In this document: positions 533 to 979 of the stretch, piece after piece
Layout of the letters: the number at the start of each line of letters is the position of its first letter
How positions within the stretch are numbered: position 1 is the first letter of the stretch
From: a virus
Strand: one strand, 5' to 3'
DNA length: 15,754 bases
UHGV virus genome: UHGV-0069791
Made by a program: the position numbers and the translations under genes
The notes under the pieces: model-generated
The model's input: the letters and a program-made list of their open reading frames with translations, nothing else
Told to the model about the DNA's origin: nothing
Databases searched by the model: none

Positions 533-979
533 TTAAGGTTTTAATTCATCAAGACGTTGTTGGATAGTGTTTTTGCTTGCGTTGTCTGTTATAGCCATTT
601 GTTGTACTTGCCCCATTGCCATTTGAGTTTCCATCCACATATCGGCCCACACTTTTGTATCGTTATTAACTTGAGCGATAGTAAATCTGACTTTTGATAC
701 CGGGGTTGTTGAATAGGCATTGCCGATTAACATTTGTCCAAAAACAGCAGACCCGCCTTCCAGTTCTTTACCACATATAACACTGCTGTTATCAGCGTTG
801 TAAATTATCAACCCTCTACTATTGCAGTAATTCACAAGGGCATCTTTGACTTTATCTTTTGTCGTATTTTGATAAACCCCCTCAGGTTTTCCTGATTGAG
901 TTTTTTTTATCAATGGTACGGAAGAAGTACAACCTGAAATGATAGTTGCGCTAAGTAATAGTACAGTCATTTTATTCAT
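533..979 (-). CDS. Accessory (moron) lipoprotein, function unknown
   Basis: 148-aa ORF with N-terminal signal peptide and lipobox (MNKMTVLLLSATIISGC; Cys then Thr at +2). Clearly AT-rich relative to the flanking phage genes (21 G+C in the 60 nt I counted at 533-592). Opposite orientation to the late operon. Confidence 0.7.
   Translation of the reverse strand: MNKMTVLLLSATIISGCTSSVPLIKKTQSGKPEGVYQNTTKDKVKDALVNYCNSRGLIIYNADNSSVICGKELEGGSAVFGQMLIGNAYSTTPVSKVRFTIAQVNNDTKVWADMWMETQMAMGQVQQMAITDNASKNTIQQRLDELKP

Follow-up and report, generated by a model that had tools for sequence, protein, structure and literature searches.

A horizontally acquired prophage lipoprotein gene beside antiterminator Q belongs to an unannotated family linked to phage tail-tip genes and may act in superinfection exclusion

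Envelope lipoproteins encoded by prophages, Cor, Llp, and Bor among them, influence the range of phages able to infect a lysogen and can also affect virulence; to our knowledge, few families of this kind have been characterised. Bor/Iss proteins are expressed in lysogens, and their documented role is in serum resistance. Llp of phage T5, whose gene adjoins that of the receptor-binding protein, is a disulfide-bearing lipoprotein located in the inner leaflet of the outer membrane; it binds FhuA from the periplasmic leaflet, blocking the receptor from the periplasmic side and protecting progeny (bioRxiv 10.64898/2026.03.26.714494). The founding moron, HK97 gp15, is expressed from the prophage and encoded in the tail operon beside the tape-measure gene; it excludes phages at the stage of DNA entry without blocking a receptor and provides a precedent for an exclusion gene within a tail module (PMC3594210). 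In the mEpimmI phages, lipoprotein genes of the structural cluster, encoding Lpp021 and Lpp010, have been shown experimentally to exclude phages according to the receptor, exclusion correlating with the use of OmpA or LamB (PMC11893012). More generally, genes for dedicated receptor-binding proteins have been proposed to lie downstream of gpJ, accompanied by those of their cognate exclusion proteins (PMC8594841).

The gene analyzed here encodes a predicted lipoprotein of 148 residues in the viral genome UHGV-0069791, of which a stretch of 15,754 nucleotides was studied (the window). The kind of gene, a prophage moron lipoprotein, is already known, and what is new is its unrelated, uncharacterised domain. 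The protein is proposed to be a functional analogue, not a homologue, of Cor, Llp, the mEpimmI Lpp proteins, and HK97 gp15; in neither sequence nor fold is its mature domain related to Cor, Llp, or Bor. Cor (phages phi80, N15, HK022, and T1; PHROG 1119) resembles it as prophage cargo, as an outer-membrane lipoprotein acting in the envelope, and in its linkage to tail-tip or host-specificity genes. However, Cor is about half the size, its profile matches cover at most residues 1-22 to 1-44, the signal peptide (E=0.003-0.6), and it is specific for FhuA, whereas the lipoprotein described here does not track the receptor-binding domain. Llp likewise shares the lipoprotein nature and the disulfide, inferred in the present case, but it is much smaller, comes from a virulent phage, and shows no sequence similarity (tblastn, 50,697 phage records). 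HK97 gp15 is a small inner-membrane protein related to YebO, neither a lipoprotein nor a homolog. Lpp021 and Lpp010 also lack detectable similarity, and their types follow receptor use, unlike the protein described here. Finally, Bor/Iss (lambda bor; PHROG 260) is a small outer-membrane lipoprotein whose gene also lies on the opposite strand near the lysis genes of lambdoid phages. The bor slot, however, follows Rz, PF06291 and other Pfam families give no match here, and the phrog_260 match is restricted to residues 1-44 in one homolog (E=0.037).

The features of the locus are collected in Table 1. Over positions 400-1250, the window matches both Escherichia phage PhiR40_1 (from ECOR13) and PhiR55_1 at 100% identity; the two are lambdoid siphoviruses in which the tail region H-M-L-K-I-J-lom-stf is unbroken.

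Table 1. Coordinates of the lipoprotein gene, its sequence features, and its neighbors in the window.
Feature	Position	Strand	Evidence
Antiterminator Q, left flank of slot	68..448	+	PF06530, E=2e-51; annotated 83-448 in PhiR40_1
AT-rich variable cargo cassette, ~36% GC	449..1072	.	Composition; homology break points against L103, L104, and other phages
Weaker candidate late promoter pR' directly after Q, TTGAGG-17 nt-TAATGT	459-487	+	By eye
GC-rich hairpin between the convergent Q and lipoprotein genes	491..510	.	Scan and folding
Prolipoprotein CDS, 148 aa	533..979	-	ORF list; full-length PHROG 3152 match; homologs; AF2 model
Conserved Cys codons of the mature part, C52 (826-824) and C69 (775-773)	773..826	-	Invariant in alignment
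Signal peptide (codons 1-16) and lipobox I14-S15-G16-C17	929..979	-	Read directly from sequence
Candidate sigma-70 promoter of the lipoprotein gene, TTGATT-16 nt-AATAAT	1014..1041	-	Consensus scan, 9/12
Candidate late promoter pR', TTTACA-16 nt-TATGCT	1045..1072	+	Consensus scan, 9/12
Terminator-like hairpin and seven-T run	1109..1127	+	Scan; fold itself weak
Small winged-helix ORF, right flank of slot	1226..1453	+	phrog_331; TrmB family label elsewhere
Orphan N6/N4 DNA methyltransferase	1604-2656	+	PF01555; PADLOC MTase_II, E=3e-152
P21-type holin, DUF1327 protein, lysozyme, Rz	2661-4355	+	
Rz1 o-spanin lipoprotein gene, embedded in Rz	4108-4314	+	

The product of the ORF at 533-979 (minus strand) begins MNKMTVLLLSATIISGC. 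A short basic n-region is followed by a hydrophobic core and the lipobox I-S-G-C, so that MNKMTVLLLSATI-ISGC constitutes the signal peptide and lipobox and fits the pattern [LVI][ASTVI][GAS]C. Cys17, whose codon occupies 931-929, is the first residue of the predicted mature protein of 132 residues, and position +2 is threonine rather than aspartate, which predicts sorting to the outer membrane. Beyond Cys17, the mature part contains exactly two cysteines, C52 and C69. All three are invariant in a family alignment of 32 sequences that extends down to 29% identity, and a periplasmic C52-C69 disulfide is inferred. A structure predicted with AF2 from the family alignment (mean pLDDT 85, pTM 0.75) is a compact alpha+beta domain with the order strand-helix-strand-strand-helix-strand-strand-strand-helix. 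Its nearest structural neighbors are the N-terminal helix-grip domain of BamC, to which the resemblance is weak, and other TBP-like or KA1-like folds (DUF4468, DUF3568/Flpp3); BamC and Flpp3 are likewise outer-membrane lipoproteins.

The lipoprotein gene has a GC content of 37.6% and a GC3 of 31.5%, compared with 51.2% GC for the whole window and 45-53% for the neighboring genes, and it sits in an AT-rich block (449-1103, 36% GC). Among 16 distinct E. coli alleles, 22 sites are polymorphic, and 12 of these changes are silent, a share that points to purifying selection. That the ORF is more than a chance reading frame follows from this mostly silent polymorphism together with a full-length match to PHROG 3152 (function unknown; E=1e-104) and homologs in other genera at 48-72% identity. 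It is a real gene under purifying selection. The original prediction, made from the sequence alone, had described a clear signal peptide and lipobox, two cysteines in the mature part, a gene far more AT-rich than the phage backbone, and a family that was not recognised. The first two observations are borne out by ISGC with its invariant Cys17 and by the invariance of C52 and C69 among the 32 aligned sequences, and the third agrees with the composition comparison, which was run. The family remained unrecognised by profile searches, as described below.

The protein belongs to a large family. A word-indexed search returned about 30 relatives at 50-72% identity from Salmonella, Jejubacter, Citrobacter, Enterobacter, Phytobacter, Xenorhabdus, and Morganella, and an exhaustive profile search recovered 823 representative clusters at E<=0.001, 52 of them at E<=1e-30. 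A lipobox is present in at least 118 of the best 148 family representatives, none of these 118 has aspartate at position +2, and a few members have plain signal peptides instead. In addition to the lipid-attachment cysteine, C52, and C69, the S-G of a TxSGxPE motif just past the lipobox is invariant, and the motifs GNxYS and ETQMxxGQ are also conserved. In some members, the core domain is fused to C-terminal PDZ, SHOCT, or BamD-like TPR (YfiO) extensions (P0117, P0128, P0198, and P0155), the BamD-like extension being found in one member.

Database searches returned little by way of a name. Neither the single protein, nor a profile of 32 sequences, nor remote members used as queries produced a sequence match in Pfam, NCBIfam, PADLOC, or the PDB, and no PADLOC defence profile matched the lipoprotein at E<=0.1. 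Among 50,697 GenBank phage records searched with tblastn, only PhiR40_1 and PhiR55_1 matched, and a second profile search of a set of 5.8 billion proteins yielded no informative family names. A literature search for the RefSeq protein accessions and for PHROG 3152, whose scope excludes the PhiR description (Brenes & Laub 2025), gave no match. A UniRef label of 'VirB7' on a Xenorhabdus homolog was examined and rejected: the PDB profile match to the VirB7-like TrwH spans residues 1-25 only, and the label probably reflects the similarity of signal peptides among lipoproteins. Judged by these features, the family is an unannotated, putatively periplasmic domain that is usually anchored in the outer membrane and has no Pfam model.

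The genomic context of the homologs provides the main new finding, which is a linkage to tail-tip genes outside E. coli. In 31 of 40 non-E. coli loci, the homolog lies in sense orientation inside the tail-tip cluster, at the H|M junction (H being the tape-measure gene), at the M|L or K|I junction, immediately ahead of a J-like gene, or a few genes past J. These loci come from prophages of Salmonella, Jejubacter, Citrobacter, Morganella, Photorhabdus, Proteus, Symbiopectobacterium, Xenorhabdus, and Haemophilus. The H-M-L-K-I-J cluster that the homologs interrupt is contiguous in PhiR40_1, and outside E. coli a homolog almost never adjoins Q. Other contexts include the nin region of a Phytobacter lambdoid prophage, a P1-like element with darA and ddrB, Mu-like Halomonas prophages, an element with a Toprim primase, and a Kosakonia plasmid. 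Members with the PDZ fusion occupy still other loci, one of them beside urocanase. Nearly all family members examined are carried by temperate phages or other mobile elements. The nin, P1-like, Mu-like, and primase-bearing contexts, together with the PDZ, SHOCT, and TPR fusions or plain signal peptides, argue that the core domain is a general periplasmic module, predicted from sequence, which need not act against phages. A presumed second copy in one locus (L008) was rejected, as the 148-aa ORF there is the end of the tape-measure gene. One metagenomic phage contig (L111 5150-14459), whose homolog is 43% identical to the window protein, shows an unusual tail gene order, with the tape-measure gene downstream of J rather than ahead of M.

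In E. coli, the gene is always chromosomal and always located between Q and the winged-helix ORF, and it was found in 185 of 5426 complete genomes. A family with neither a name nor a Pfam model thus occurs in about 3% of complete E. coli genomes, that of the model uropathogen UTI89 (WP_001033965.1) among them; further carriers include APEC and ETEC strains. The sister prophages are attached at dusA, prfC, or ssrA, and the same order of Q, lipoprotein gene, and winged-helix ORF recurs in about 50 IMG/VR contigs.

Comparison with related phages places the mosaic boundaries of the E. coli cassette inside Q, near ~241, on the left and at 1053-1072 on the right. The same slot carries a WYL-domain protein in E. 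coli E7-1N7 (L103 3030-3647), an antisense ORF of 308 aa in mEp460_4F5 (L104 1493-2419), and an ORF of 141 aa in phiSTEC1575-Stx2k (L114 3498-3923). In the window, the slot contains no tRNA genes, and its sole Rfam match is below threshold. phiSTEC1575-Stx2k carries tRNA genes and stx2 farther downstream, past the conserved winged-helix ORF. In the window, this position, between the winged-helix ORF and the holin gene, is taken by the methyltransferase gene (1604-2656), which suggests, in a comparison of the stx slot that is approximate only, that the lipoprotein gene occupies a Q-proximal sub-slot distinct from the stx slot itself. To the right, the slot is followed by a block (~1072/1104-1453) comprising the hairpin with its seven-T run and the winged-helix ORF that is common to phages with unrelated Q types. 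Over 1072-1453 it is 96-99% identical to mEp460, cdtI, Stx2c/Stx2k, and SfV phages (copies at L103 3746-4127, L104 2488-2887, and L114 4001-4344), and its winged-helix ORF encodes a TrmB/MarR-like protein of 68-75 aa (phrog_331).

A moron is defined here following PMC3594210, which cites Juhala et al. 2000. With respect to insertion, the cargo of the slot differs among sister phages, and homologs split genes that are adjacent in PhiR40_1. With respect to composition, the GC content of 37.6% against 51.2% in the window has its counterpart in 32 of 34 homolog loci, where the homolog is lower in GC than its flanks (median difference -7.8 points). With respect to its own signals, the window has a 9/12 promoter match at 1041-1014 (minus strand) and the hairpin at 491-510, which lacks a U-tract on the minus strand. 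An intrinsic terminator with a perfect stem lies within 100 nt past the stop codon in 20 of 34 homologs; two loci (L074 and L004) have both a promoter-like site just upstream of the homolog and a terminator, and two others (L080 and L002) have neither. Homologs with low GC content, their own terminator, and a promoter-like site have what is, by these sequence signals, the classical anatomy of a moron. The gene in the window is best regarded as mobile, horizontally acquired prophage cargo that encodes a predicted outer-membrane lipoprotein. The original prediction of a horizontally acquired moron thus stands on deviant GC content, varied slot cargo, and the presence of homologs in several slots of many prophages. 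Its placement of the gene in a slot that commonly holds cargo such as toxins is upheld in one respect, the varied cargo beside Q in sister phages, but the toxin (stx) sub-slot is a different one. A further part of the prediction, that the gene is transcribed against the late operon, is correct with regard to orientation, which is opposite to that of all surrounding genes; transcription against the late operon itself is unproven, as there are two candidates for pR'.

Depending on the late promoter, the lipoprotein gene would lie either antisense within the late transcript or upstream of the promoter. The pR' candidate at 1045-1072 stands back to back with the promoter candidate of the lipoprotein gene (1014-1041) and straddles the mosaic boundary, and the latter promoter would leave a 5' UTR of ~27 nt on the lipoprotein transcript. 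The hairpin at 491-510 folds with -16.8 kcal/mol (z=-4.25) on the plus strand and -11.2 kcal/mol (z=-2.0) on the minus strand, and it is followed by a U-tract on the plus strand only. It probably ends the Q transcript, and an effect on the lipoprotein transcript is uncertain.

Based on these data, the preferred reading, held tentatively and with confidence somewhat short of even, is that the protein is a periplasm-facing outer-membrane lipoprotein that excludes superinfecting phages. In this model, the gene would be transcribed in the lysogen from its own promoter, and homologous copies in tail operons would probably also be transcribed late in infection. After export through Sec and lipid attachment at Cys17, Lsp would cleave the preprotein, leaving a compact alpha+beta domain of ~115 aa with the C52-C69 disulfide to face the periplasm. 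Because a lipoprotein exported in this way cannot be part of the virion, its site of action would be the envelope of the producing cell. There, the domain would bind a conserved envelope component from the periplasmic side and stop infection early, at irreversible adsorption or at DNA delivery, which would protect the lysogen; late-expressed copies could also spare progeny virions from loss on cell debris. It is the linkage to tail-tip genes in other genera that favors this reading, by analogy with the published exclusion genes found within or beside tail and receptor-binding modules. The exclusion role suggested in the original prediction is plausible on this basis.

A comparison with tail proteins bears on the nature of the presumed target. 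In the six E. coli prophages compared, lipoprotein identity is 99-100%, whereas the C-terminal 250 aa of J are 53-95% identical. Between genera, the lipoprotein retains 48-72% identity, compared with 28-47% for M, L, K, I, and the N terminus of J, and there is no positive correlation between the two. A receptor-matched excluder was rejected on these grounds: no covariation with the J C terminus or the tail-tip proteins was found, and a protein so much steadier than these is unlikely to be a receptor-specific, tail-matched excluder. These two comparisons, and the presence of copies in P1-like and Mu-like prophages, suggest a conserved component of the host envelope as the target, rather than a phage protein or a variable receptor loop. 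In its most general form, which is speculative and improbable as it stands, the idea would make the protein the founding member of an unannotated domain family that temperate phages of three unrelated architectures (lambdoid siphoviruses, P1-like, and Mu-like) use for receptor-independent exclusion via a conserved envelope machine. Candidates for this machine would be the BAM or Lpt complex, at which the weak BamC-like fold and the single BamD-like fusion hint, or the peptidoglycan/periplasmic route of DNA delivery. If true, this general form would explain why the lipoprotein is better conserved than the tail proteins encoded beside it.

The same conservation and lack of covariation with the J receptor-binding domain would also fit a different host-directed function, that of a lysogenic-conversion factor helping the host through envelope traits such as serum or complement resistance, stress tolerance, or adhesion, in the manner of Bor/Iss, Lom, or TraT. 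An antisense, AT-rich lipoprotein gene near the lysis region is reminiscent of lambda bor, the carriers include pathogens (UTI89, APEC, and ETEC strains), and the domain also occurs in non-phage architectures. However, homology to Bor/Iss is lacking, the phrog_260 match being to a signal peptide only; a conversion factor would have no obvious reason to reside in the tail-tip cluster, as in 31 of 40 loci; and the gene is also found in environmental, insect-associated, and commensal genera. This explanation is considered unlikely, if a serious contender. Less probable still is a role in the lytic cycle, in which the protein would be made late and either mask entry sites against the loss of progeny on debris or tune lysis and peptidoglycan hydrolysis. 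The majority of homologs point the same way as the late tail genes, with which they would share a transcript, several directly follow the NlpC/P60-JAB gene K, an SLT transglycosylase is encoded close to the Halomonas copy, and Llp offers an example of progeny protection. In contrast, the E. coli copy is opposite in orientation to all late genes, and many homologs have their own terminator and promoter-like sites, which together argue for expression independent of the late operon. Moreover, H-M-L-K-I-J is unbroken in PhiR40_1-type phages, implying that the lipoprotein gene is dispensable for tail function, and the spanins Rz/Rz1 are already present. An o-spanin identity of the lipoprotein itself was rejected, as Rz1 is encoded separately at 4108-4314 within Rz and the spanin PHROG matches are to the signal peptide only.

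The gene could also lack a selected role in the prophage, being either a passenger in decay or a housekeeping lipoprotein gene out of place, and the copy in the O177:H21 prophage (L106 33171-33617), which lacks the start codon and signal peptide and is annotated as a protein of 132 aa, would be in keeping with decay. A few relatives adjoin ordinary chromosomal genes, such as the PDZ fusion by urocanase. Against this, an intact copy is present in each of the five other E. coli prophages that were read, the allele polymorphism of the gene shows a purifying pattern, and the lipobox, the cysteine pair, and several motifs are kept in representatives of the 823 clusters; the lipoprotein also has no housekeeping paralogue in E. 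coli K-12 and no Pfam match. Largely refuted by this conservation, the passenger explanation is very improbable.

The exclusion reading has implications beyond this locus. In Enterobacterales other than E. coli and in Pasteurellaceae, the family is tightly tied to tail-tip genes, and exclusion via a conserved host target, if true, would constitute a new and broadly distributed mechanism with a bearing on the prediction of phage host range and on phage therapy. The tail-tip linkage, the large unannotated family, and the availability of cultured carriers make the question tractable: PhiR40.1 and PhiR55.1 have been grown in culture and employed in published infection assays of E. coli K-12 (PMC13190303).

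Several minor observations concern other parts of these prophages. In the window, an ORF of 255 aa at 4455-5222, between the lysis genes and terminase, has Rha/antirepressor-like sequence features; the annotation of PhiR40_1 has only small ORFs in this interval. The O177:H21 prophage, in which the lipoprotein gene lacks its start codon, also has the most divergent J C terminus of the six compared (53-57% identity), a coincidence seen in a single case, and its integrase-proximal end encodes a SLATT protein and a reverse transcriptase (L106 3847-5746). In the prophage of strain M10, the integrase-proximal end encodes a type II restriction endonuclease, a cytosine methyltransferase, and a GIY-YIG protein (L108 2529-6385).
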